Shown in pieces: positions 7,420 to 27,339 of a stretch of DNA of 64,000 nt. The DNA comes from Candidatus Omnitrophota bacterium (GTDB taxonomy: Bacteria > Omnitrophota > Gorgyraeia > Ghiorseimicrobiales > Ghiorseimicrobiaceae), in NCBI GenBank assembly GCA_030681595.1, contig JAUXSB010000009.1, forward strand, positions 24,265 to 88,264, written 5' to 3'. The notes beneath the pieces were generated by a model. The model did no database searches, was not told the DNA's origin, and worked only from the letters and a program-made list of their open reading frames with translations. Position numbers and translations under genes: made by a program. Every line of letters begins with the position of its first letter. The first letter of the stretch is position 1.

Positions 7420-8046
7420 ATGTCTAAAGATTCTAATGCTTCTTGCAGGCTTTGCCGCAGAGAAGGAATGAAATTATTTTTGAAGGGATTGCGTTGTATC
7501 GGGGATAAATGCGCTTTTACCCGCCGCAGTTTCGCGCCCGGCCAACATGGGAAAATGACGTCTAAGTTATCCAATTACGGTTTACAGCTAAGGGAAAAAC
7601 AAAAGGTTAAGAGGATGTACGGGTTAAGGGAGCAGCAATTTAGGCGTTATTTTAATATCGCCGCCCGTATTAAAGGAGTAACCGGTAAAATCCTAATTCA
7701 ATTACTGGAAAGAAGGCTGGATAACGTTATCTTTCGGGCCGGTTTTGCCGTATCGCACAACCAGGCACGTTTTATTGTCAATCATGGCCACATCTGTGTA
7801 AATAGCCGCCGGGTAAATATACCGTCGTATTTAGTTAAGGCTCAGGATATAGTTGAAGTAAAGGGAAAAGGGAGCTTATTAAATAATATAAAGCAGACAT
7901 TGGAAGCGATTAAGGATTGGCCGAAAGCTTCTTGGCTTGAGGTGGATGCTGCAAATCTAAAAGCAAAAGTCTTAAGGCTTCCGGAGAAGGATGATCTGCA
8001 GCTACCGATACAGGAACAGCTGATAGTAGAGTTGTATTCTAAGTAG
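7420..8046 (+). CDS. rpsD: 30S ribosomal protein S4, with an N-terminal zinc finger
   Basis: CRLCRREG…C..C N-terminus plus an S4 RNA-binding domain. Confidence 0.92.
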   Translation: MSKDSNASCRLCRREGMKLFLKGLRCIGDKCAFTRRSFAPGQHGKMTSKLSNYGLQLREKQKVKRMYGLREQQFRRYFNIAARIKGVTGKILIQLLERRLDNVIFRAGFAVSHNQARFIVNHGHICVNSRRVNIPSYLVKAQDIVEVKGKGSLLNNIKQTLEAIKDWPKASWLEVDAANLKAKVLRLPEKDDLQLPIQEQLIVELYSK

Positions 8047-8109
8047 GTTTTAATTAACATTGGCGTGGTGTTAAAAGCTAATTAACCAGACAGAACGGAG
8101 TGAGGGAAA

Positions 8110-9105
8110 ATGGGGATAAAATGGAAAGATTTTCAGATGCCGAAACGGTTAGAATGCGACGAGGCAACTTATACGCCTACTTACGGTAAATTTATTGCGG
8201 AGCCGTTTGAGCGTGGCTATGGTGTAACTTTGGGGAATTCTTTAAGGCGTGTGCTTCTTTCATCAATAGAAGGCAGCGCGGTTACTTCGGTTAAGATAGA
8301 GGGCGTATCGCATGAGTTTTCTACAATTAGCGGCGTATCAGAAGATGTAACCGATATAATCTTGAATATAAAGCAATTGGTTCTTCGCTCCTATGCCAAA
8401 ACTCCCAAGACAATTTATATAAAAGCAGATAAAAAAAGAGAGGTTAAGGCGGGGGATATTGTTACAGATGAAACTATCGAGATTCTTAACCCGGATTTAC
8501 ATATCGTTACCCTTACCGAAAATACAAAGTTTAACGTGGAAATGGAGGTTGGCCGCGGGCGTGGATATGTTACTTCCGAGGTGAATAAAAAAGACAGCCA
8601 GAGGATAGGGGTAATTGCTGTTGATTCGATATTTGCTCCGGTACGCAATGTGAATTTTTATGTAGAAAGCACACGTGTCGGGCAAAGGACAGATTACGAT
8701 AAGCTAATATTAGAGATAACTACCAACGGAAGCATTAGCCCTAAAGACGCGCTTCTTTATGCTTCGAATATATTACAGCGTCATTTAGATGTTTTTGTGA
8801 ATTTTGGGCAGCTTCCCGAAGAAGAAGAGGAGGAAGCCTTAAGTTCGGAAGAGCAAGCATTATATGAGAAACTCAAGCTTCCTATATCGGAACTTGAGCT
8901 TTCCGTGCGTAGCTCTAATTGCCTGAAAGAAACAAATATTAAGACCATTGGGGACTTAGTAAGAAGAACAGAGGCTGATTTATTGGGCTTGCGTAACTTC
9001 GGGAAAAAATCGCTTACGGAAATCAGTGAATTGATTGTTTCTTTAGGTTTAACCTTAGGGATGGACGTAGACTTAAAGAAAATAAAGAAAGAAAAACAAG
9101 GATAA
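8110..9105 (+). CDS. rpoA: DNA-directed RNA polymerase alpha subunit
   Basis: 331 aa with alpha NTD and CTD (…LSVRSSNCLK…). Position after rpsD. Confidence 0.92.
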   Translation: MGIKWKDFQMPKRLECDEATYTPTYGKFIAEPFERGYGVTLGNSLRRVLLSSIEGSAVTSVKIEGVSHEFSTISGVSEDVTDIILNIKQLVLRSYAKTPKTIYIKADKKREVKAGDIVTDETIEILNPDLHIVTLTENTKFNVEMEVGRGRGYVTSEVNKKDSQRIGVIAVDSIFAPVRNVNFYVESTRVGQRTDYDKLILEITTNGSISPKDALLYASNILQRHLDVFVNFGQLPEEEEEEALSSEEQALYEKLKLPISELELSVRSSNCLKETNIKTIGDLVRRTEADLLGLRNFGKKSLTEISELIVSLGLTLGMDVDLKKIKKEKQG

Positions 9106-11182: not shown

Positions 11183-12439
11183 ATGGGTAAAACTATTGTT
11201 GAAAAAATTTTAAGCGCCCACTCCGGAAAAGATCTGAAGCCGGGAGATTTTGCTATATGTGATGTAGATTTTTGCTTTGGGCAAGATGGCACTTCCGCGA
11301 TTATCATTGACCGGATTAAAGCGCTGGGCGTAAAAAATCTCGCCAATAAAGATAAATTTTGCATGGTCATAGACCATAGTTCTCCCAGCCCGAATATGGG
11401 GGTTTCCGCTGTCCATAGTAAGATGCGTGCGTTTGCAAAAGAGTTCGGTTTAAAAGTCTATGATATCGGCTGTGGAGTTTGTCATGAGGTGGTCCCGGCA
11501 GAAGGCAATGTCCTGCCCGGGGATTTGGTTTTGGGGGCAGATTCGCATACCTGCACCTATGGCGCAATCGGCGCATTCTCTACCGGCGTCGGATCAACCG
11601 ATTTGGCAGTTGCTTTAGCCAGCGGTAAAAACTGGTTCCGTGTCCCTGAAACGATAAAGATAGAAGTAAATGGAAAATTGCCTAAAGGCGTTTATGCCAA
11701 AGATTTGATTCTTTACATCATCGGCGACTTGGGAGCAAATGGCGCTACTTATAGGGCGGTTGAGTTTTATGGAAGCGCAATAGATAATTTATCTCTTGAC
11801 GGGCGTTTTACAATGAGTAATATGGTAGTAGAAATGGGCGCAAAATGCGCCTTCTTTCCGGTGGATGAAAAAGTTCTAAGCTGGGTAAAAGAAAAGAGCA
11901 TAAAGAGAAAACCCATAATTTATAAAGCAGATTCTAGCGCCGAATATTGCCTGGTTAAGGAATATGATGCCGGAGACATTGCGCCACAGGTGGCAAGGCC
12001 GCATACTGTTGATAATGTAGTTGCGGTAAAAAAGATAGAAGGCCTTAAAATTAACGAAGCATTTTTAGGCACCTGCACCAACGGAAGGCTTGATGATTTG
12101 AAGGTGGCTTGGCGAATTTTAAAGGGAAGAAAAGTTAATCCGAAGATTAAATTCATTATCGCGCCAGCTTCACGCAGGATTTATTTGGAGGCATTAAAAT
12201 TAGGTTTTATAGAAACTTTTATAAAGGCGGAAGCGGTAGTGATTACTCCGGGATGCGGGCCGTGCGTGGGCACCCATATGGGTATTCCCGCAGATAAAGA
12301 AGTAGTGCTTTCAACGGCAAACAGGAATTTTAAGGGCAGGATGGGAAATCCTGAGTCGGAAATCTATCTTGCTTCTCCGGCTACTGTTTGCGCTTCAGCT
12401 GTTAGCGGCAAAATAACCGACCCACGGAAATATTTATAG
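11183..12439 (+). CDS. leuC: 3-isopropylmalate / citramalate dehydratase large subunit (aconitase family, archaeal-type LeuC)
   Basis: 418 aa. Has the aconitase cluster-ligand context (…GTCTNGR…, …PGCGPCVG…). Confidence 0.88.
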   Translation: MGKTIVEKILSAHSGKDLKPGDFAICDVDFCFGQDGTSAIIIDRIKALGVKNLANKDKFCMVIDHSSPSPNMGVSAVHSKMRAFAKEFGLKVYDIGCGVCHEVVPAEGNVLPGDLVLGADSHTCTYGAIGAFSTGVGSTDLAVALASGKNWFRVPETIKIEVNGKLPKGVYAKDLILYIIGDLGANGATYRAVEFYGSAIDNLSLDGRFTMSNMVVEMGAKCAFFPVDEKVLSWVKEKSIKRKPIIYKADSSAEYCLVKEYDAGDIAPQVARPHTVDNVVAVKKIEGLKINEAFLGTCTNGRLDDLKVAWRILKGRKVNPKIKFIIAPASRRIYLEALKLGFIETFIKAEAVVITPGCGPCVGTHMGIPADKEVVLSTANRNFKGRMGNPESEIYLASPATVCASAVSGKITDPRKYL

Positions 12440-12458: not shown

Positions 12459-13508
12459 ATGTTGGATTTAAGGACTTTGCTTATGGCGACCATAGAGAAA
12501 AAGGCTTCAGACTTGCATATTACCGATAACGCCCCTCCGATAATGCGCGTTTATGGAAAATTGATACATACGGAATTTCCCAAGTTAAACAAAGAAGATA
12601 CTAAAAAATTAATCTACAGTATGCTTAATGAGACACAAAAAGAAGCTTTTGAAAAAGATTTAGAACTGGATCTTTCGCTTGCGCTTCCCGGCCTTGACCG
12701 TTTCCGGGTAAATGTGCATATCCAGAGGGGTACTGTTGAGGCGGCGTTCCGCAGGATTCCCCTGATTATACCCACAGTTGAAGATCTAGGCCTGCCGCAA
12801 ATAGCGCTTGATTTGTCAAGAAAACCAAATGGCCTGGTTTTGGTGACCGGCCCCACAGGTGTAGGTAAGACGACAACGCTTGCGGCAATGGTGAATTTAA
12901 TTAATGCTGAACGGGAAAACATAATTATTTGTATTGAAGACCCGATAGAATTCTTGCATTACAACAAAAAAAGCATTATTAAGCAACGCGAAGTCTATTC
13001 TGATACTAAATCTTTTGCTGAGGCGTTACGGCATGCCCTTCGCCAGGATCCAAATGTTATTGTCGTCGGTGAAATGCGCGATTTAGAAACCATCGCGACA
13101 GCATTAACCGCCGCGGAAACCGGACATTTGGTTTTGGCTACTTTGCATACTCCGGATGCCCCACAGACGGTGCAAAGAATTATTGATGTTTTTCCTCCGC
13201 ACCAGCAGCAGCAGGTAAGGCTGCAACTATCCGACTGCTTGCAGGGTGTTGTATCACAGCTGCTCCTTCCCAGGGCTATCGGCGAGGGAAGAGTTTTGGC
13301 TACAGAAATAATGATCGGGACAAGCGGTATTAAGAACTTAATCCGTGAACAGGAGATAGAACAGATCCCTACCTTAATACAGACAGGCGCGCAATATGGC
13401 ATGAGGACGATGGATAAGTCTTTAAAGGAACTGTATAGGACGGGGATTATTTCTTATGAAACAGCGCTGGCTAGGGTTAAAAATCCTCAGGATTTCAGGA
13501 ATCTTTAA
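12459..13508 (+). CDS. pilT: type IV pilus retraction ATPase PilT
   Basis: 349 aa. Walker A GPTGVGKTTT, Asp box, Walker B and His box, with an N-terminal PilT N domain. Confidence 0.88.
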   Translation: MLDLRTLLMATIEKKASDLHITDNAPPIMRVYGKLIHTEFPKLNKEDTKKLIYSMLNETQKEAFEKDLELDLSLALPGLDRFRVNVHIQRGTVEAAFRRIPLIIPTVEDLGLPQIALDLSRKPNGLVLVTGPTGVGKTTTLAAMVNLINAERENIIICIEDPIEFLHYNKKSIIKQREVYSDTKSFAEALRHALRQDPNVIVVGEMRDLETIATALTAAETGHLVLATLHTPDAPQTVQRIIDVFPPHQQQQVRLQLSDCLQGVVSQLLLPRAIGEGRVLATEIMIGTSGIKNLIREQEIEQIPTLIQTGAQYGMRTMDKSLKELYRTGIISYETALARVKNPQDFRNL

Positions 13509-13522
13509 CGGGGCTATCCGTA

Positions 13523-14029
13523 ATGAATATTAAAGTTAAGGGTACTGCAATAAAGCTAGGCAGCGATATAAATACCGACTTGATTATTTCCGGAAGGTAT
13601 AAATTTTCCATAACCGATATGAAAGAGCTTTCTAGGCATATCTTTGAAGATTTGGATAAAGACTTTGCCGGAAAGATCAAGCCTAATGAGTCTATCATTA
13701 CCGCGGGGGAGAATTTTGGCATGGGCTCATCCCGAGAGCAGGCGCCGTTAGCGATAAAAGAAGCTGGGATATTAGCTGTGGTAGCCAAAAGCTTTGCCCG
13801 CATATTTTACCGAAATGCTTTTAATATCGGCTTATTGCTTATTGAAGCAGATACCGATAAAATATCTGAAAATGACAAGATAGATATAGATTTGGATAAG
13901 GGCATACTTAAGAATGAAACCAAGGGTTCTCTTATAGAAATTAAGCCTATGCCGAATGTGCTTAAGGCCTTATTTCTAGACGGCGGCTTAGTAAATCACT
14001 TCAAAAAGCATCAGGGATTAGAATTATAG
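13523..14029 (+). CDS. leuD: 3-isopropylmalate / citramalate dehydratase small subunit
   Basis: 168 aa aconitase swivel domain (…GENFGMGSSREQAP…). Confidence 0.88.
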   Translation: MNIKVKGTAIKLGSDINTDLIISGRYKFSITDMKELSRHIFEDLDKDFAGKIKPNESIITAGENFGMGSSREQAPLAIKEAGILAVVAKSFARIFYRNAFNIGLLLIEADTDKISENDKIDIDLDKGILKNETKGSLIEIKPMPNVLKALFLDGGLVNHFKKHQGLEL

Positions 14030-20218: not shown

Positions 20219-20246
20219 TTGACTTTAATTTTTAAAATAGTATAAT
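20219..20246 (+). promoter_or_regulatory. sigma70-like promoter (TTGACT-16-TATAAT)
   Basis: Near-consensus hexamers ~100 bp upstream of the GGDEF/HD-GYP gene. Confidence 0.55.
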
Positions 20247-20342: not shown

Positions 20343-22409
20343 ATGGTTTTTGGGCATATTATTGTGAAGAAAAATAACAAAAAAATAGATAAGCAATTAT
20401 CTTTGTGTTTGCGGCATTCCGCGAGTAAAAATGTGGCTTTGCCTGACGAAGAAAGCCTGAAGGATAATGCGCAGCTTTACCGTAGCCTTATTGAGACATC
20501 GCCGGATGCCATTATGCTTATTGATAAAGACTTAAAAATCATTATGGTCAATAAGCAGGCTGTCAGATTACACGGTTTTGATAATATGCAGGAATTAATC
20601 GGCAAAAGCGCCTTAGATATTATAGCAGCCAATGACAGGAGGCGCGCCATAGGCAATGCTTTTAAAATTACTAAATATGGGACAAGGAAAAATATAGTAT
20701 ATACTTTTCTTAGGAAAGACGGTTCTTATTTTTTTGGCGAGTTAAATGTATCGGTAGTCAGGGATAAATTGAAGATGAACAATGTTTTTATCGGGATAGT
20801 CAGGGATATTACCGAACATAGAAAAGCGGATGAGGTGTTAAAGTTGTCCGAAGAGCGTTACCGGGCTACTCTTGATTCTATGGCAGATGGTATACATGTA
20901 GTTGATTCGAGTATGCGCATCATTTTGTTTAATCAGGCGTTTATAAATTTAAACAAGAATTTAAAGTTGGGTTGTAGAGCGATAGGAAAAAATTTATTTG
21001 ACGTATTCCCTTTTCTATCGGATAAAGCGCGCAACGAATACAAAAAAGTATTTAAGACAGGAAAGACTGTAATTACTTCTGAATGCCATATGGCTAAAGG
21101 CAGGGAAATTAACCTGGAAGTAAGAAAAATCCCTATTTTAGAACAGGGCATAGCGGCAAGAGTCCTGACAGTTATTGTGGATGTCAGCCAACGCAAGTTC
21201 CTGGAAAAGGAATTTGAGAAGGTTCATAGAGAGATCTTAGAGTCAAATATGAAATTAAAAGAGTTGGCCATGCTGGATTCCCATACCGGCCTTTATAATC
21301 ATCGTTATTTGGAAGATATCCTTGAGAAAGAATTTTTGAGGGCAAAGCGTTGTAAATACCATATTTCGCTAATTATGTTAGATATAGACTATTTTAAATC
21401 TATAAATGATGTTTACGGGCATCAATTCGGTGATTTGGTATTAAGGCAGTTCGCTACGCAGATTAGGAAGGTGGTACGTAAATATGACATCGTTACCAGA
21501 TTCGGCGGGGAGGAATTTGTGATTGTATCGCCGGGAACGAACACTCAAACAGCTTTATCCTTGGCAGGCAGGATTTCAAGCAATATAAATCTTTGCAATT
21601 TCGGAGACAAGAGTCACCATGTTAAGATAAAGTTAAGCATGTCCATAGTTTCTTATCCGGAAAACGATGCGGCGACCGGCATGGGTTTGCTTAATGTTGC
21701 CGATAAAGTATTGAATAGGGTTAAAGAAGAAGGCGGCGACAGGATTTATGCTTATTCGGATATTTCAAAACAGGGGCAAATTGATAACGCAACGCGCGGA
21801 GAAGATATAGATGTTGAAGTCATAAAAGATAAGATGGATAAACTTACGAAGCGCGTCAACCAGAGTTTAGTGGAGGCAATCTTTGCTTTTGCTAAAACAA
21901 TTGAATTAAAAGACCACTATACCGGCGAGCATGTGGAGCGTACTGTTGAATATGCCACAGGGCTTTGCCGCGCCCTTAATCTTTCTAAAGAGGAGACAAA
22001 TATTATTAAGCAGGCGGCCATACTGCATGATTTAGGAAAAATCGGCATAAGCGATAAAATTTTACTTAAGAAATCCAAGCTTACTAAAAAGGAATTTGAG
22101 GAAATCAAGAAACACCCGCAGATTGCCGCGGATATAATTCGTCCCGTTCAATTCCTGCATAATATAGTCCCCCTGGTCCTTTATCACCATGAGCGATGGG
22201 ACGGCAAAGGTTACCCTAGCGGCTTAAAGGGCGAGCAGATCCCTATAGGGGCGCGCATAATTTCTATCGCGGACGCATACCAGGCGTTAATCTCCGATCG
22301 TGCTTACCGTAAGGCATACCCTAAGAAAGAGGCAATAAAAATACTTCGGGAAGAATCCGGCACAAGATATGATCCGGCAATTCTGGATATGTTTTTGAAC
22401 GTCACATAA
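20343..22409 (+). CDS. PAS/PAC-PAS-GGDEF-HD-GYP protein (bifunctional c-di-GMP cyclase/phosphodiesterase)
   Basis: Two PAS regions, GGDEF variant GGEEF (RFGGEEFVIV), and a C-terminal HD-GYP (HD…HHERWDGKGYP). The N-terminal ~45 aa is uncertain because the start codon lies inside a hairpin. Confidence 0.85.
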   Translation: MVFGHIIVKKNNKKIDKQLSLCLRHSASKNVALPDEESLKDNAQLYRSLIETSPDAIMLIDKDLKIIMVNKQAVRLHGFDNMQELIGKSALDIIAANDRRRAIGNAFKITKYGTRKNIVYTFLRKDGSYFFGELNVSVVRDKLKMNNVFIGIVRDITEHRKADEVLKLSEERYRATLDSMADGIHVVDSSMRIILFNQAFINLNKNLKLGCRAIGKNLFDVFPFLSDKARNEYKKVFKTGKTVITSECHMAKGREINLEVRKIPILEQGIAARVLTVIVDVSQRKFLEKEFEKVHREILESNMKLKELAMLDSHTGLYNHRYLEDILEKEFLRAKRCKYHISLIMLDIDYFKSINDVYGHQFGDLVLRQFATQIRKVVRKYDIVTRFGGEEFVIVSPGTNTQTALSLAGRISSNINLCNFGDKSHHVKIKLSMSIVSYPENDAATGMGLLNVADKVLNRVKEEGGDRIYAYSDISKQGQIDNATRGEDIDVEVIKDKMDKLTKRVNQSLVEAIFAFAKTIELKDHYTGEHVERTVEYATGLCRALNLSKEETNIIKQAAILHDLGKIGISDKILLKKSKLTKKEFEEIKKHPQIAADIIRPVQFLHNIVPLVLYHHERWDGKGYPSGLKGEQIPIGARIISIADAYQALISDRAYRKAYPKKEAIKILREESGTRYDPAILDMFLNVT

Positions 22410-22480
22410 AACAAAAAAATTATCCTGCCTAACATTTTATCTTGCAAGCAGTTAGTGCTAAGAGAATAACCTTTTTAATC

Positions 22481-22510
22481 TTGACTATTTCTGTAAAAAT
22501 GAGCTATAAT
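22481..22510 (+). promoter_or_regulatory. sigma70-like promoter (TTGACT-18-TATAAT) upstream of the PilZ gene
   Basis: Consensus hexamers, 35 bp upstream of the ATG. Confidence 0.5.
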
Positions 22511-22545
22511 ATCATTTTGAATTTATATATATTTAGGGAGGGTAA

Positions 22546-22968
22546 ATGGATTCTATCGAAAATGGGCACAGGGGTATAGAACGAAGGCGGTTTGTCCGCC
22601 TGCCTTACAGGTCGCCGCTTAAATACAAAATCTGTAAAGAAGACACGATAAAAAAACTAATGTCCGGCTATACCGAGAATATCAGCCAGTCTGGCCTGCT
22701 CTGTAATATTAATGACCAGGTGCCTCTAGACTGTGTATTGTGGCTTGCTTTGGACATGGGGATTTTAAGCATTTGCTCCGAGATAGAGAGGAATAGTGTT
22801 ATCCTGCAGCATGGCATACTCGGCCGGGTGATAAGGACTTATCAGAAAAAAAACGGCAGTTTCGATGTGGGCGTGCGTTTTCTTACGCGGAGCGAAACAG
22901 ATACCGGCAGCCTTTTCCAGAAGGCTTACGTAGATGAGGCGATGTTAGGAGATAATGCGGATAGATAA
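22546..22968 (+). CDS. PilZ-domain c-di-GMP receptor (single domain)
   Basis: RRRFVRL (RxxxR) and NISQSGLL (D/NxSxxG) motifs. Confidence 0.75.
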   Translation: MDSIENGHRGIERRRFVRLPYRSPLKYKICKEDTIKKLMSGYTENISQSGLLCNINDQVPLDCVLWLALDMGILSICSEIERNSVILQHGILGRVIRTYQKKNGSFDVGVRFLTRSETDTGSLFQKAYVDEAMLGDNADR

Positions 22969-23950
22969 AATTGCTATACTGGGAGATGGTGGGTGGGGGA
23001 CTACCTTAAGCATCTTGCTTTCCAAAAAGGGGTTTAGGGTTTCTCTTTGGAGTGCCTCAGAAGAATACGCGTATTTTTTAGATAAAAAGAGGAACAACGC
23101 AAAATTTCTTCCCGGCGTCAGGATTCCAAAAAATATAAAAATTAGTTCCGACATATCTAAAATTATCTTGGCGGCAGAAGTATTGGTTTTGGCTATTCCT
23201 TCGCAGTATTTACGCGGCGTATTATCAAAAATAAAACGTGAATTCTTGCATAACAAGCTTATTGTAAGCGTGGTTAAGGGCATTGAGAATAAAACTCTGA
23301 TGCGGATGTCCGAAGTAACGAGAGATGCTTTAGGTAATATCAGGGTTTCGGTATTATCCGGCCCGACCATCGCGCGCGAGGTGGCCAATCTTATTCCCTC
23401 GGCCGCAGTTGTTGCCTCCAGTGACCCTCTGACAGCCAGCTTGCTGCAAGGGATATTTATGACTGATAGGTTTAGGATTTACACTAACGATGATATCGCA
23501 GGCGTAGAATTGGGAGGGAGTATTAAAAATGTTATTGCTATTGCCTGCGGCATCTGCGATGGCCTGAAATTCGGCGCCAATACTAAAGCAGCGCTTCTTG
23601 CGCGAGGCTTAACAGAAATGTGCCGTTTAGGCATAGCGATGGGAGCGAAAGTACATACTTTTTACGGATTAAGCGGATTAGGGGATTTGGTTACGACCTG
23701 CAGCAGTGTTTACAGCAGGAATCGCGGCTTAGGAGAAAAAATAGGGCGTGGTAAGAAACTAAAAGATATCATTACGCATATGGATATGGTGGCCGAGGGC
23801 GTGCCGACGACAAAATCCGTATATGAATTGAGCAAGAAATATAAAGTAGATATGCCCATAACTAAAGAGGTATACTCTGTTCTTTACAAGAACAAGAATC
23901 CGCTTAAGGCGGTAGATGATTTGATGACGAGAAGGGGTAAAAACGAGTAG
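22955..23950 (+). CDS. gpsA: NAD(P)H-dependent glycerol-3-phosphate dehydrogenase
   Basis: N-terminal Rossmann ILGDGGWGTT plus the GpsA C-terminal domain. Confidence 0.9.
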   Translation: MRIDKIAILGDGGWGTTLSILLSKKGFRVSLWSASEEYAYFLDKKRNNAKFLPGVRIPKNIKISSDISKIILAAEVLVLAIPSQYLRGVLSKIKREFLHNKLIVSVVKGIENKTLMRMSEVTRDALGNIRVSVLSGPTIAREVANLIPSAAVVASSDPLTASLLQGIFMTDRFRIYTNDDIAGVELGGSIKNVIAIACGICDGLKFGANTKAALLARGLTEMCRLGIAMGAKVHTFYGLSGLGDLVTTCSSVYSRNRGLGEKIGRGKKLKDIITHMDMVAEGVPTTKSVYELSKKYKVDMPITKEVYSVLYKNKNPLKAVDDLMTRRGKNE

Positions 23951-23973
23951 GGGGAGGTTTTATAAATTTCTAA

Positions 23974-24051
23974 CGGGGCGTGGCTCAGTTTGGCTAGAGC
24001 ACTTGAATGGGGTTCAAGGGGTCGACAGTTCGAGTCTGTCCGCCCCGACCA
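23974..24051 (+). tRNA. tRNA-Pro (anticodon GGG), with encoded CCA
   Basis: Manually folded. Acceptor CGGGGCG/CGCCCCG with the C1:G72 pair typical of tRNA-Pro and U8. D-stem GCTC/GAGC. Anticodon stem CTTGA/TCAAG with loop AT-GGG-GT. T-arm GACAG-TTCGAGT-CTGTC. Discriminator A, then CCA. Confidence 0.8.
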
Positions 24052-24135
24052 ATTTTATAGTGGTAAATATTTATTTAAAGTCAATAATACATCCTTGAAC
24101 CCAAGGTAACAATGGCAGTAACATATAAATAGATT

Positions 24136-24495
24136 ATGTGGGAAGAAGATTCGGAAGAGAAGCGCAAGGCTCCTCGAATAAAAAAACAGCTTGTCATTCA
24201 ATATAGTTTTAAGCGCGGGATAGACCAGCCTGAAGTTTGGGATGAGTCTGTGATAAATGATATAAGCGAGACAGGTGCTAGTTTTAACGTCGGTAAGCAG
24301 TTTAGGCGTGACGAAATCTTTGTTATATACCTGTATTCTCCGGTAAATCCCGCAGATAAAATAGAGATTAAGGTAAAAGTGATAGATTCGGCTGCGTCCA
24401 GTATAGGCATACATAGAACAAGAGTGGAATTCGTTGGTCTCTTAGAGGAGCAAAAAATCCTGCTTAGGGAGTGTATCGCACAATTTTTGAAATAA
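24136..24495 (+). CDS. PilZ-domain protein (single domain, 119 aa)
   Basis: KRKAPRI and NDISETGASF motifs. Confidence 0.7.
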   Translation: MWEEDSEEKRKAPRIKKQLVIQYSFKRGIDQPEVWDESVINDISETGASFNVGKQFRRDEIFVIYLYSPVNPADKIEIKVKVIDSAASSIGIHRTRVEFVGLLEEQKILLRECIAQFLK

Positions 24496-24513
24496 AATTT
24501 AAGGAGGCATAAA

Positions 24514-24879
24514 ATGGCTTACAACGGAAAAGAAAGACGAAAGTACACCCGCATTAGTAGAACCTTTATAGTCTCTTACAGGATTTTAAAAGAAGTCGAT
24601 AATTACGACTTAACGCAAACTAAGAATATTAGTACCGGAGGAATGCTTCTTACGACAAACAGGCTTTTTGGCCCGGGCACGCTTTTAGCCATAGATATAA
24701 GGCTGCCTTTCTTGATTGAGCCTTTGAATTTAAAAGGACAGGTCATTGATTCCAGGGAAGTGGTAAAAAATTTGATCTATGATACCCATCTGGAGCTTAT
24801 CGATGCCGATGAGGAAACCAAAGAAGTGATTAATAAGACGGTAGTTTATCACCTTAAGAAGGCCGGAGAACAGAAATGA
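24514..24879 (+). CDS. PilZ-domain protein (single domain, 121 aa)
   Basis: ERRKYTRI and KNISTGGMLL motifs. Tandem paralogue of the previous ORF. Confidence 0.72.
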   Translation: MAYNGKERRKYTRISRTFIVSYRILKEVDNYDLTQTKNISTGGMLLTTNRLFGPGTLLAIDIRLPFLIEPLNLKGQVIDSREVVKNLIYDTHLELIDADEETKEVINKTVVYHLKKAGEQK

Positions 24880-26171
24880 AAAGAGTTAATATTGGCTTAA
24901 TCGGGTTCGGCACGGTAGGAAGCGGCGTAGCAAGGGCGCTCCTGGAAAGAAAATCACTGCTTGCCAAAAGAAGCGGCATAGAGCTGGTTTTAAAAAAGAT
25001 CTGCGATAAAGACCTATCGCGCAGGCGTTCGGTTATTGTGAATAAGTCGCTTCTGACCGATAACGTAAATGAAATCCTAAATGATAAAGAAATTGATATA
25101 GTAATTGAGCTTATCGGTGGGATACATCCGGCGAAGGAGATAATCATAGAGGCGTTAAAGAAAGGCAAGCATGTTGTTACCGCCAATAAGGCGCTTTTGG
25201 CAGAAGAAGGCCTAGGGTTGTTTAAACTTGCCGACAGGCTAAATAAAAATATTTATTTTGAGGCTTCTGTAGGCGGAGGAATTCCGCTTATCAAATCTCT
25301 AAAAGAAGGCCTTGTTGCCAATAGGGTTGAGGCGATTTACGGCATTGTAAATGGGACATGCAATTTTATCTTAACCCAGATGTCGGAGAGAGGCATAAGT
25401 TTTAAGGATGCTTTGGCAGAGGCGCAAAAAAGAGGTTTTGCTGAGCGGAAGCCGACCTTAGATATAGAGGGGTTTGATTCGGCACATAAATTAGCCGTGC
25501 TTACCCAGCTGGCATTTGGTAAGTTTGTAAAAATGTCTGATATTTTTATTGAAGGGATTTCGCGTATTTCGCTGCAGGATATACGTTATGCCGCGGAGCT
25601 TGGTTTGGTGATAAAACTTCTTGCCATTGCCAAAAAAGAAAAGGATGAGCTGGAAGTGCGCGTGCACCCGACAATGATACCGCGCGATCACCTTTTGGCC
25701 TCTGTAGGCGGAGCTTTTAACGCTATTTATATTTCGGCGGATATGGTCGGCGATATGCTTTTTTACGGTTTAGGCGCGGGGCAGAATCCTACCGCATCCG
25801 CGGTGGTAAGCGATTTGGTATCTTTGGCGCAGGCCTTAAATGGCGAAGAGGCATATGTCAGGCCGTTTGATTTTTCTCAAGGTAAATCTATCCGCCATTT
25901 GCGGAAAATAGACCAAATCAGCACGAGATTTTATATCAGGTTTATGGCAATTGATAAGCCGGGTATTTTTGCGAAAATTTCCGGTATCTTAGGCAAGTAT
26001 AAGATTAGTATTGCATCTGTCGCGCAAAAGGAAAGGCGCCGCGCAAAGATTGTCCCGGTTGTAATAATTACTCATGAAGCGCTGGAAAAGTCAATGCGTA
26101 TTGCCTTAGAAAAAATAAATAAGCTAGCCATCGTTAAAGAAGCAGTAGCGATTAGGATGGAAGAGACTTAA
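24876..26171 (+). CDS. hom: homoserine dehydrogenase with a C-terminal ACT domain
   Basis: N-terminal NAD-binding GLIGFGTVG, catalytic domain, and an ACT-like C-terminus. Confidence 0.9.
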   Translation: MKRVNIGLIGFGTVGSGVARALLERKSLLAKRSGIELVLKKICDKDLSRRRSVIVNKSLLTDNVNEILNDKEIDIVIELIGGIHPAKEIIIEALKKGKHVVTANKALLAEEGLGLFKLADRLNKNIYFEASVGGGIPLIKSLKEGLVANRVEAIYGIVNGTCNFILTQMSERGISFKDALAEAQKRGFAERKPTLDIEGFDSAHKLAVLTQLAFGKFVKMSDIFIEGISRISLQDIRYAAELGLVIKLLAIAKKEKDELEVRVHPTMIPRDHLLASVGGAFNAIYISADMVGDMLFYGLGAGQNPTASAVVSDLVSLAQALNGEEAYVRPFDFSQGKSIRHLRKIDQISTRFYIRFMAIDKPGIFAKISGILGKYKISIASVAQKERRRAKIVPVVIITHEALEKSMRIALEKINKLAIVKEAVAIRMEET

Positions 26172-26223: not shown

Positions 26224-27339
26224 TTGGAAATTGGGTATTTTAAAACTATGTGGCAGGGGATAATTTCGCAGTATAAAAATTATTTAGATTGTATAAACAA
26301 TAAAACTCCGGTTGTGACGATAAACGAGGGCAATACGCCTTTAGTCTATTCGCATAATCTAAGCAAGTTAATCGGCGCAGAAGTCTATTTAAAATACGAA
26401 GGCTTGAATCCTACCGGTTCATTCAAGGATAGGGGCATGACCGTTGCCATATCTAAGGCAAAAGAGGATAAATCAAAGGCAGTAATTTGCGCCTCGACGG
26501 GGAATACCTCCGCGTCAGCGTCTGCGTATGCGGCAAAGGCGGGATTAAAGTCTATTGTGCTGGTGCCGGAAGGCGCAATTGCCCTAGGAAAGCTTTCGCA
26601 GGCCTTAATTCACGGCGCGATAGTATTACAGGTTAAGGGTAATTTTGACGATGCTTTGAATATGGTAAGAGAAATCAGTTCGAAATATCCTATAACATTA
26701 GTTAATTCAATTAACCCTTACCGCCTTGAGGGGCAGAAAACCGGTGCCTTTGAGATATGCGATTGTTTGGGGGGAGCGCCTGATTTTCAGGTAATGCCTG
26801 TGGGCAATGCCGGCAATATCACAGCTTATTGGAAGGGGTATAAAGAATACAGGGAAAAAGGAAAGATAAAAGTTCTTCCGAAAATGCTGGGTTTTCAAGC
26901 AGCGGGTGCGGCTCCTATCGTAAAAGGGCATATCATTAGGAAACCAAAGACAATTGCGACGGCTATCCGTATCGGCAACCCTGCCAGCTGGAGGAGGGCC
27001 CAAGAGGCGCGGGATGAGTCCGGCGGCTTAATCGACATGGTAAGCGACAAAGAGATTCTTTCGGCGTATAAATTTTTAGCGCAGAAAGAAGGAGTTTTTG
27101 TTGAACCGGCATCCGCGGCATCCGTTGCCGGTTTATTTAAATTAGTTAAAAAAGGATACTTTTCCCGCATACGACCCAAGCCATCGCTTGGGTGCCCCGA
27201 CGCAGGACGCACAACGCGAATAGTTTGCATCCTTACCGGCCATGGATTAAAGGATCCCGATATGGTGCTGGCAACAATAAAAAAACCAAAGGTAATAAAG
27301 GCCGATATAAAAGCGGTATTAAAAGAAATTGGATATTAA
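26224..27339 (+). CDS. thrC: threonine synthase
   Basis: PLP lysine in PTGSFKDRG. The start could instead be the Met at 26248. Confidence 0.9.
   Translation: MEIGYFKTMWQGIISQYKNYLDCINNKTPVVTINEGNTPLVYSHNLSKLIGAEVYLKYEGLNPTGSFKDRGMTVAISKAKEDKSKAVICASTGNTSASASAYAAKAGLKSIVLVPEGAIALGKLSQALIHGAIVLQVKGNFDDALNMVREISSKYPITLVNSINPYRLEGQKTGAFEICDCLGGAPDFQVMPVGNAGNITAYWKGYKEYREKGKIKVLPKMLGFQAAGAAPIVKGHIIRKPKTIATAIRIGNPASWRRAQEARDESGGLIDMVSDKEILSAYKFLAQKEGVFVEPASAASVAGLFKLVKKGYFSRIRPKPSLGCPDAGRTTRIVCILTGHGLKDPDMVLATIKKPKVIKADIKAVLKEIGY

Follow-up and report, generated by a model that had tools for sequence, protein, structure and literature searches.

What do three genes for small PilZ proteins do among the housekeeping genes of an Omnitrophota bacterium, and do they belong with the cyclic di-guanosine monophosphate (c-di-GMP) enzyme encoded next to them? 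The question is posed by positions 20343 to 24879 of a 64-kb stretch of Candidatus Omnitrophota DNA (contig JAUXSB010000009.1; the whole stretch is called the window below). This locus holds a gene for a PAS-PAS-GGDEF-HD-GYP protein, the genes for PilZ1, PilZ2, and PilZ3, gpsA, and a tRNA-Pro(GGG) gene, and it is followed by hom. No c-di-GMP receptors are commoner than stand-alone PilZ proteins, and the targets of most of these are not established. An earlier note on this DNA had read the locus as a compact module of one enzyme and three receptors. Comparison with the loci of relatives, which are given L numbers here (P numbers denote proteins of a representative library), leads us to favor, with moderate confidence, another reading: the three PilZ proteins would be vertically inherited stand-alone c-di-GMP adaptors, cotranscribed with housekeeping genes in a conserved core-genome unit of Omnitrophota.

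The PilZ genes belong to a conserved gene block

The order PilZ1-gpsA-tRNA-Pro-(PilZ2)-PilZ3-hom-thrC is common to ~90 Omnitrophota loci. The window follows it, with every gene on the + strand. PilZ1 (22546 to 22968) is succeeded by gpsA (22955 to 23950), which encodes an NAD(P)H-dependent glycerol-3-phosphate dehydrogenase of 331 amino acids (NCBIfam NF000942, 420 bits, and Pfam); by tRNA-Pro(GGG) (23974 to 24051; ARAGORN, and Rfam RF00005 with 58.2 bits), the only tRNA of the window; by PilZ2 (24136 to 24495) and PilZ3 (24514 to 24879); and by hom (24876 to 26171), the product of which is a homoserine dehydrogenase of 431 amino acids with an ACT domain (NCBIfam NF004976, 525 bits, and Pfam). 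Next comes a thrC-like gene for a pyridoxal phosphate enzyme of the threonine synthase family (26224 to 27339; the L001 copy, which is identical, has a PALP domain), and it likewise follows hom in every relative whose sequence extends far enough. When window proteins were compared by tblastn with gpsA loci, the order was found to continue as hom-thrC-DFP-apgM-lysC-leuA-like-valS in L003 to L007 and L017. Long contigs of distant members (L083, 646 kb; L085, 581 kb; L087; and L174) have the same order, and L085 has all three PilZ genes. The window GpsA is 78% identical to that of Omnitrophica GWA2_41_15, 73% to that of CG11_42_13, and 57 to 64% to those of many other Omnitrophota metagenome-assembled genomes (MAGs); PilZ1 and PilZ2 proteins exactly matching those of the window are on record at NCBI from an Omnitrophota MAG.

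The block was also followed in 80 metagenome loci recovered by a profile built from 85 PilZ3 orthologues. Among the loci evaluable in each case, hom lies directly downstream of PilZ3, within 400 nucleotides (nt), in 66/66; tRNA-Pro is found no more than 1 kb upstream of PilZ3 in 45/58 and gpsA no more than 1.5 kb upstream in 27/34; PilZ1 precedes gpsA in 26/29. By our rough estimate for a 2000-gene genome, ~0.003 five-gene windows with three PilZ genes would be expected if 10 PilZ genes were placed at random, and ~0.07 if there were 30; the recurrence of the same clustering in dozens of relatives is the stronger argument. The DNA sampled (the window and the flanks in relatives) gave no sign of dozens of c-di-GMP genes. 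Outside Omnitrophota, PilZ beside gpsA was not seen in ~60 other gpsA loci, L044 excepted. In that locus (7806 to 8999), an unrelated 218–amino acid PilZ open reading frame (ORF) and a GGDEF-like match stand on the opposite strand right after gpsA, probably by coincidence.

Several junctions of the block are tight. The 3′ end of PilZ1 overlaps the start of gpsA by 14 nt in the window and, with gene starts in relatives inferred by alignment to the window proteins, the two genes overlap or lie within 5 nt of each other in 38/39 loci. The PilZ3 stop overlaps the hom start (ATGA), and the distance between these genes is 10 nt or less in 54/83 loci. From the tRNA 3′ end to the next PilZ start, 40 nt or less are counted in 39/66 loci; for PilZ2-like genes in the 66 related loci, this gap is as short as 8 to 10 nt. 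Since in most relatives the gap is too short for a separate promoter and leader, the tRNA is presumably transcribed in the same unit and processed out. A candidate promoter of the PilZ1-gpsA-tRNA-PilZ-hom unit is a sigma-70–like site upstream of PilZ1 at 22481 to 22510 on the + strand (TTGACT-18-TATAAT, 11/12 in a consensus scan, a pattern match only), after which come a Shine-Dalgarno sequence, GGGAGGG, and the start codon (ATG, 22546). No c-di-GMP riboswitch or other Rfam element besides the tRNA was found between 19900 and 25200; a whole-window Rfam scan at gathering thresholds, which matched nothing, the tRNA included (58 bits locally, against a gathering score of 29), was not relied on. 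No clade-wide promoter or motif was found between the tRNA and PilZ, and CCTTGAAC occurs only in the window, L091, and L095.

Three PilZ proteins with c-di-GMP–binding motifs

Among the 66 nonnested + strand ORFs of the window, exactly three match Pfam PilZ (PF07238), and all three are at this locus. PilZ1 (140 amino acids, a single domain with helical insertions) scores 33.7 bits, PilZ2 (119 amino acids, single domain) 38.1 bits (2.1e-9), and PilZ3 (121 amino acids) 34.6 bits (2.5e-8), in each case above the gathering cutoff of 22.5 bits. Each protein has both motifs of the family, RxxxR and [D/N]xSxxG: RRFVR and NISQSG in PilZ1, RKAPR and DISETG in PilZ2, and RKYTR and NISTGG in PilZ3. The PilZ, GGDEF, and HD domains and motifs named in the earlier note are thus borne out by Pfam and by motif positions, as are its three PilZ-only proteins of 119 to 140 amino acids; profile hidden Markov models support PilZ for all of these small ORFs. 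NCBI already labels the proteins as PilZ domain-containing.

PilZ ORFs of many loci cluster by position, those before gpsA, after the tRNA, and before hom falling into separate groups (orthologous groups 1, 2, and 3, to which PilZ1, PilZ2, and PilZ3 belong). In the PilZ1 orthologues, of which 21 clusters were found, R14, R18, S47, and G50 are invariant. The PilZ3 family is large and tight, with 298 homologue clusters of ~55 to 93% identity and lengths of 115 to 124 amino acids. Its orthologues have 18 invariant columns, including R9, R13, G42, and G43, with N38 and S40 conserved to at least 90%; invariant residues outside the nucleotide-binding motifs are T47, T48, N49, R63, L64, P65, I88, Y89, and D90. 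PilZ2 is fast-evolving and patchy, with just four close clusters found. Relative to the genus-level relative L091, the PilZ1 of which is 86% identical to that of the window, the ratio of nonsynonymous to synonymous substitution rates (dN/dS) is 0.17 for PilZ1, 0.15 for PilZ2, and 0.06 for PilZ3, compared with 0.10 for gpsA and 0.09 for hom. Purifying selection acts on each of the three PilZ genes, which are genuine, and PilZ3 is among the most conserved genes of the block.

An AlphaFold2 model of PilZ3 (predicted local distance difference test, pLDDT, of 83) has a beta-barrel and a C-terminal helix. Its top Foldseek matches in the PDB are MotI/DgrA, the YcgR PilZ domain, PA0012, Alg44, BcsA, and a chain of a methyltransferase complex, 5y4r_D, which we take to be MapZ bound to the methyltransferase CheR1. 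As modeled, PilZ3 has the canonical PilZ fold, matching the six-stranded beta-barrels of solved PilZ proteins. The fold search was needed here; a search with the PilZ3 sequence against solved structures gave nothing significant. Membership of PilZ3 in TIGR02266, a PilZ paralogue family of Myxococcus, was considered and rejected: PilZ3 matches the family at 34.2 bits (E value of 2e-8) and PilZ1 at 13.6 bits, and the PilZ3 score is far under the family cutoff of 68.7 bits.

A fourth, divergent PilZ-like ORF is seen between apgM and lysC in L085 (10619 to 11029), L127 (10619 to 11029), and L007 (16035 to 16352). It scores 20 to 22 bits with Pfam PilZ, just under the cutoff, and the L085 copy has a hydrophobic N terminus. 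The window lacks this ORF, since apgM and lysC are 50 nt apart there.

PilZ2 and PilZ3 as a probable pair

PilZ2 and PilZ3, which the earlier note took for tandem paralogues, share 24% identity and fall into separate orthologous groups, which rules out a recent tandem duplication. A search of the representative library for PilZ3 relatives gave 2332 matches, of which the best 150 were inspected for fusions; they include proteins of ~230 amino acids with two PilZ stretches. In one of them, P0147, the N-terminal half is 38% identical to PilZ2 and the C-terminal half 53% identical to PilZ3, both sets of motifs are intact, and both PilZ stretches are recognized by Pfam. This fusion is encoded on 10 contigs in the order thyA-PilZ1-gpsA-ORF-fusion-hom. 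P0148 is a similar PilZ2::PilZ3 fusion. The fusions occupy the same genomic slot and serve as Rosetta-stone evidence that PilZ2 and PilZ3 probably act together. No PilZ fused to Hom or GpsA was found among the best 150 of the 2332 representatives, and the contigs of two distant PilZ3 relatives, P0176 and P0215, were too short for their contexts to inform. Another protein, P0146 (231 amino acids), differs from the PilZ2::PilZ3 fusions in having two nearly identical PilZ3-like halves, which points to a recent internal duplication.

The tRNA gene and the variable interval behind it

The earlier note had considered that the PilZ pair 3′ of the tRNA might be absent from relatives and represent an islet. 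The tRNA-Pro(GGG) gene follows gpsA in most Omnitrophota loci (its seeming loss in L003 is an artifact of N masking). PilZ3 is kept between tRNA-Pro and hom across the clade; the expected absence was found for PilZ2 only, which is patchy. The gpsA-to-hom interval of 55 loci holds one PilZ gene in 44 and two in 11. PilZ3 diverges in step with its neighbors (53 to 77% identity in the metagenome loci, against 56 to 88% for hom), and PilZ2-like genes with 31 to 43% identity occupy the same slot in distant relatives. No integrase was found between the tRNA and hom, where PilZ2 and PilZ3 are the only ORFs. The window has no second copy of the last 23 nt of the tRNA at up to 3 mismatches, and there is no shift in composition from 22500 to 26000, where guanine-cytosine (GC) content stays at 0.40 to 0.45 and GC skew is positive throughout. 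Given the synteny, the uniform composition, and the lack of a tRNA 3′-end repeat and of an integrase, an islet at the tRNA is refuted for PilZ3, PilZ2 alone being patchy. For PilZ2, the presence of similar genes in distant lineages favors an old origin and frequent losses over a recent acquisition.

Some relatives have insertions between tRNA-Pro and PilZ3; none has one between PilZ3 and hom. In L119 (2022 to 6001), the inserted genes, located between gpsA/tRNA-Pro and PilZ3, encode two MNT-like nucleotidyltransferases, a HepT ribonuclease, LprI, and DUF6998. The insertion in L160 (2584 to 4817) includes, on the other strand, a gene for a B12-binding radical SAM protein, and that in L162 (360 to 5860) has ORFs without a Pfam match. 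In L091 (~11540 to 11880), a GC-rich insertion of ~330 bp, not present in the window, stands right after tRNA-Pro; it resembles a miniature inverted-repeat transposable element and is bounded by an inverted repeat (GAGCCTTCGCAAAATAATGG ... CCATTATTTTGCGAAGGCTC).

No Shine-Dalgarno sequence precedes PilZ2 in the window, in L004, or in L091. Together with the short tRNA-PilZ gaps, this suggests that tRNA processing might create a nearly leaderless PilZ mRNA. At 24093 to 24102, 41 nt past the tRNA, stands CCTTGAACCC, a perfect reverse complement of GGGTTCAAGG (24010 to 24019) in the anticodon-arm region of the tRNA. The core, ATCCTTGAACC, also precedes the first PilZ gene of L091 and of L095 but is not kept across the clade.

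The GGDEF-HD-GYP enzyme as a lineage-specific neighbor

The gene at 20343 to 22409 on the + strand encodes a protein of 688 amino acids in which Pfam finds two PAS stretches, GGDEF (8e-42, 143 bits), and HD_5 (PF13487; 1e-41, 143 bits); in NCBIfam it matches TIGR00254 with 159.5 bits. The GGDEF half resembles PleD and WspR in having a GGEEF active site (388 to 392) and an RxxD I-site, RKYD (379 to 382), five residues upstream (RKYD-IVTRF-GGEEF, 379 to 392). In the HD-GYP half, the HD dyad (562 to 563) and HHERWDGKGYP (GYP at 623) are intact. This half aligns end to end with PmGH, an active phosphodiesterase (4mcw; 2e-39), and likewise over its full length with PA4781 (4r8z) and V-cGAP3 (5z7c), the His/Asp ligands and GYP being kept (H, HD, H, HH, D, and GYP). 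Unlike in PmGH, the position of Glu185, a ligand of the third metal, is Tyr, as in V-cGAP3. The substitution points to a metal site that is probably binuclear, a trinuclear one being unlikely. The preferred substrate may be c-di-GMP, pGpG, or cGAMP. With both catalytic motifs intact, the protein is plausibly bifunctional at the sequence level, as the earlier note had it: a predicted diguanylate cyclase with an I-site combined with an HD-GYP phosphodiesterase. The note was also right that no other cyclase or phosphodiesterase is recognizable in the window. A six-frame motif scan of the 64 kb found GGDEF once, HD-GYP once, and the EAL signature (DDFGTG) not at all, so that the sole PilZ, GGDEF, and HD-GYP genes detected in the window are those at 20343 to 24879. 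Pfam HD matches two proteins in the window, one besides the HD-GYP enzyme.

The enzyme gene ends 136 nt upstream of PilZ1 both in the window and in L091, where the protein is 91% identical (dN/dS of 0.13). The order bioD-bioA-enzyme-PilZ1 was found only in the source species (L090) and L091. The enzyme gene does not adjoin PilZ1 in L003/L087, L004, L007, L083, L085, and L174, all of which keep the PilZ genes, and a GGDEF-HD-GYP gene is present at the PilZ block in 0/80 metagenome loci. A search of 844 kb of Omnitrophota loci, a sample biased toward the PilZ-gpsA-hom block, turned up no further GGDEF/HD-GYP gene of this type. Upstream of PilZ1, relatives have thyA (L083, L085, and L174) or Fur/SOR/AhpC on the other strand (L087), and synteny breaks exactly between the enzyme gene and PilZ1. 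A sigma-70–like site precedes the enzyme gene on the + strand (20219 to 20246; TTGACT-16-TATAAT, 11/12, again a pattern match in the consensus scan only), and a weak terminator-like hairpin is found at its 3′ end. Co-location of enzyme and receptor genes, the mark of a dedicated local c-di-GMP module, is therefore not conserved. Judging from the gene order and the promoter-like sites, the enzyme gene appears to be a separate transcription unit that landed beside the block in this genus only.

Discussion

In the reading that we favor, PilZ1-gpsA-tRNA-Pro(GGG)-(PilZ2)-PilZ3-hom-thrC would be transcribed as one unit from a promoter upstream of PilZ1, the tRNA would be cut out of the shared transcript, and gpsA and hom would be translationally coupled to the PilZ genes that precede them. 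Each PilZ protein would bind c-di-GMP through RxxxR and [D/N]xSxxG and would then act as an adaptor on a protein partner, like MapZ, YcgR, and MotI. PilZ2 and PilZ3 would work as a pair, which in some relatives would be one fused two-domain protein. The enzyme encoded upstream, responding to a signal sensed by its PAS domains, would probably contribute to the c-di-GMP pool of the cell rather than serve these receptors as a dedicated partner.

Several points weigh against this picture. Binding of c-di-GMP by the PilZ proteins is a prediction from motifs and fold, and for PilZ1 the model is mediocre (pLDDT of 70.5) and Foldseek returned no PilZ match. Translational coupling of PilZ3 and hom is not universal, since the gap between them is 51 to 291 nt in 17/83 loci. 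The promoter scan gave 25 sites, against a mean of 16 in shuffled sequence, all of them consensus matches only. The 80 metagenome loci were picked by similarity to PilZ3 and are thus uninformative on genomes without it; moreover, the loci are phylogenetically related, and their counts are not counts of independent events. The Omnitrophota loci L008 to L013 are without PilZ genes at these positions. Loci of this kind look ancestral; L012, for example, has the order pgsA-like, plsY, gpsA, tRNA-Pro, hom. In another of them, L011, an ORF similar to type IV pilins (2112 to 2558; N_methyl, FTLIELLIVV) lies between gpsA and tRNA-Pro.

The close junctions invite a more specific proposal, in which the PilZ proteins control metabolism directly: PilZ1 would act on GpsA, which supplies glycerol-3-phosphate for phospholipids, and PilZ3, with PilZ2, on Hom or the Thr/Met branch, throttling growth-related anabolism by c-di-GMP–dependent protein contact. 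The overlapping or abutting PilZ1/gpsA junction (38/39) and the invariable position of hom after PilZ3 (66/66, never with an insertion between them, while other junctions of the PilZ block do take insertions) are in its favor, and the many invariant PilZ3 residues off the nucleotide-binding motifs would fit a conserved partner surface. PilZ1 and PilZ3 usually occur together (26/29 evaluable PilZ3 loci) and are both missing from the gpsA flanks in L008 to L013, L012 having plsY-gpsA-tRNA-hom in their place. This co-occurrence, however, is confounded by phylogeny, and a shared promoter alone would bar insertions between PilZ3 and hom. Adjacency is also a poor guide to function in this genome, where genes are all codirectional and an unrelated pilT-family ATPase gene is nested in a biosynthetic operon, between leuC-like and leuD-like genes. 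The best 150 representatives included none with PilZ joined to Hom or GpsA, and the open-access literature searched held no paper linking PilZ to hom or gpsA. We consider direct control doubtful. It is unlikely, too, that in this large clade c-di-GMP acts straight on core anabolism through PilZ1 on GpsA, at the entry to phospholipid synthesis, and PilZ2/PilZ3 on homoserine dehydrogenase (Thr/Met/Ile), with the PilZ genes coupled in translation to those of the enzymes within one operon that contains the tRNA; this would be an undescribed class of PilZ target.

The two other explanations are largely refuted. A dedicated module, in which the neighboring PAS-GGDEF-HD-GYP enzyme would produce and degrade c-di-GMP on the spot for the three receptors, would agree with the 136-nt spacing in the window and L091, with the enzyme gene being the only GGDEF/HD-GYP gene found in 64 kb, and with the intact catalytic motifs. 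The adjacency is gone, however, in every more distant relative examined and in all 80 metagenome loci, the PilZ genes being kept; near-consensus promoter-like sites precede both the enzyme gene and PilZ1, with the hairpin after the former; and the synteny break falls exactly between the two. We regard such a module, which was the central claim of the earlier note, as quite improbable. Horizontal acquisition of the PilZ pair with the tRNA gene as integration site is less plausible by far and can be given very little weight. It would account for the variability of the post-tRNA interval in some relatives (the MNT/HepT toxin-antitoxin genes of L119, the insertions of L160 and L162, and the 330 bp of L091) and for the patchiness of PilZ2 in that slot, a second PilZ gene being present in 11/55 loci. 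It conflicts with the constant tie of PilZ3 to hom and its divergence in step with its neighbors, and with the absence of an integrase, a tRNA 3′-end repeat, and a GC or skew anomaly; PilZ2-like genes in distant relatives and their fusion with PilZ3 fit old vertical descent with losses.

The adaptor reading has parallels among known systems. One is the single-domain adaptor MapZ (PA4608 of Pseudomonas aeruginosa), the partner of which is the methyltransferase CheR1. PilZ3 resembles it in size (~120 amino acids), in its beta-barrel with a C-terminal helix, in its RxxxR and [D/N]xSxxG motifs, and in standing alone, so that it must act via a partner. It differs in its context, a gpsA/hom housekeeping operon rather than chemotaxis or motility genes, and in its sequence, in which no similarity to solved PilZ proteins was detected. 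The best structural matches of PilZ3 are MotI/DgrA of Bacillus subtilis, YcgR of Escherichia coli, and PlzA of Borreliella (5vx6, E value of 9e-6; 5y6g; and 7mie), and the ~230–amino acid fusions P0147 and P0148 have a two-barrel architecture comparable to theirs. In these known two-domain proteins, the N-terminal YcgR-N and xPilZ domains are not known to have full c-di-GMP motifs. The window barrels, in contrast, are encoded by separate genes, both have full motifs, and no flagellar genes are nearby. The likeness to TIGR02266 goes as far as a subthreshold match. Small pilZ genes have been described downstream of the giant genes of Omnitrophota (bioRxiv 10.1101/2023.11.21.568195). They share with the genes studied here the phylum and the small stand-alone form, and such genes recur in these genomes; they are sited by giant and secretion/transport genes, however, and PilZ linked to gpsA or hom is not described in that work. 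Beyond it, the open-access literature searched held nothing relevant on c-di-GMP in Omnitrophota, nor any account of PilZ1-gpsA or PilZ3-hom coupling, of the embedded tRNA, or of a split or fused PilZ2-PilZ3 pair. The protein families are thus well known, and the genomic context of these PilZ genes, undescribed in that literature, is so far correlative only.

Overlapping or abutting codons lock PilZ1 and PilZ3 to gpsA and hom in a deep, mostly uncultured clade, and this makes the two enzymes concrete candidate targets. If the link to them is true, c-di-GMP signaling would extend from motility and biofilm formation to lipid and amino acid synthesis; if it is false, the locus is simply an operon, well conserved, in which receptor genes happen to lie. 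The naturally split and fused PilZ2-PilZ3 pair offers a system for studying how two PilZ barrels cooperate. The negative results matter as well: the cyclase gene appears to be an incidental neighbor, and the tRNA marks no islet.

The pilT-family gene and strand bias

The earlier note had also pointed to pilT as a possible link to c-di-GMP. This gene is 8 kb upstream and separates a leuC-like from a leuD-like gene, an arrangement found otherwise only in L091/L092 among the loci compared, and the link is not upheld. Its product is a PilT/PilU-family ATPase (12459 to 13508; TIGR01420, 468 bits), flanked by genes for a leuC/hacA-like large subunit (11183 to 12439) and a leuD-like small subunit (13523 to 14029). 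It thus splits a normally adjacent pair of subunit genes of the aconitase-type dehydratase family, and does so in the genus-level relative (L091/L092) as well. Strand bias in the window is extreme: the + strand carries every plausible gene of the 64 kb, and each 2-kb bin has a positive GC skew.

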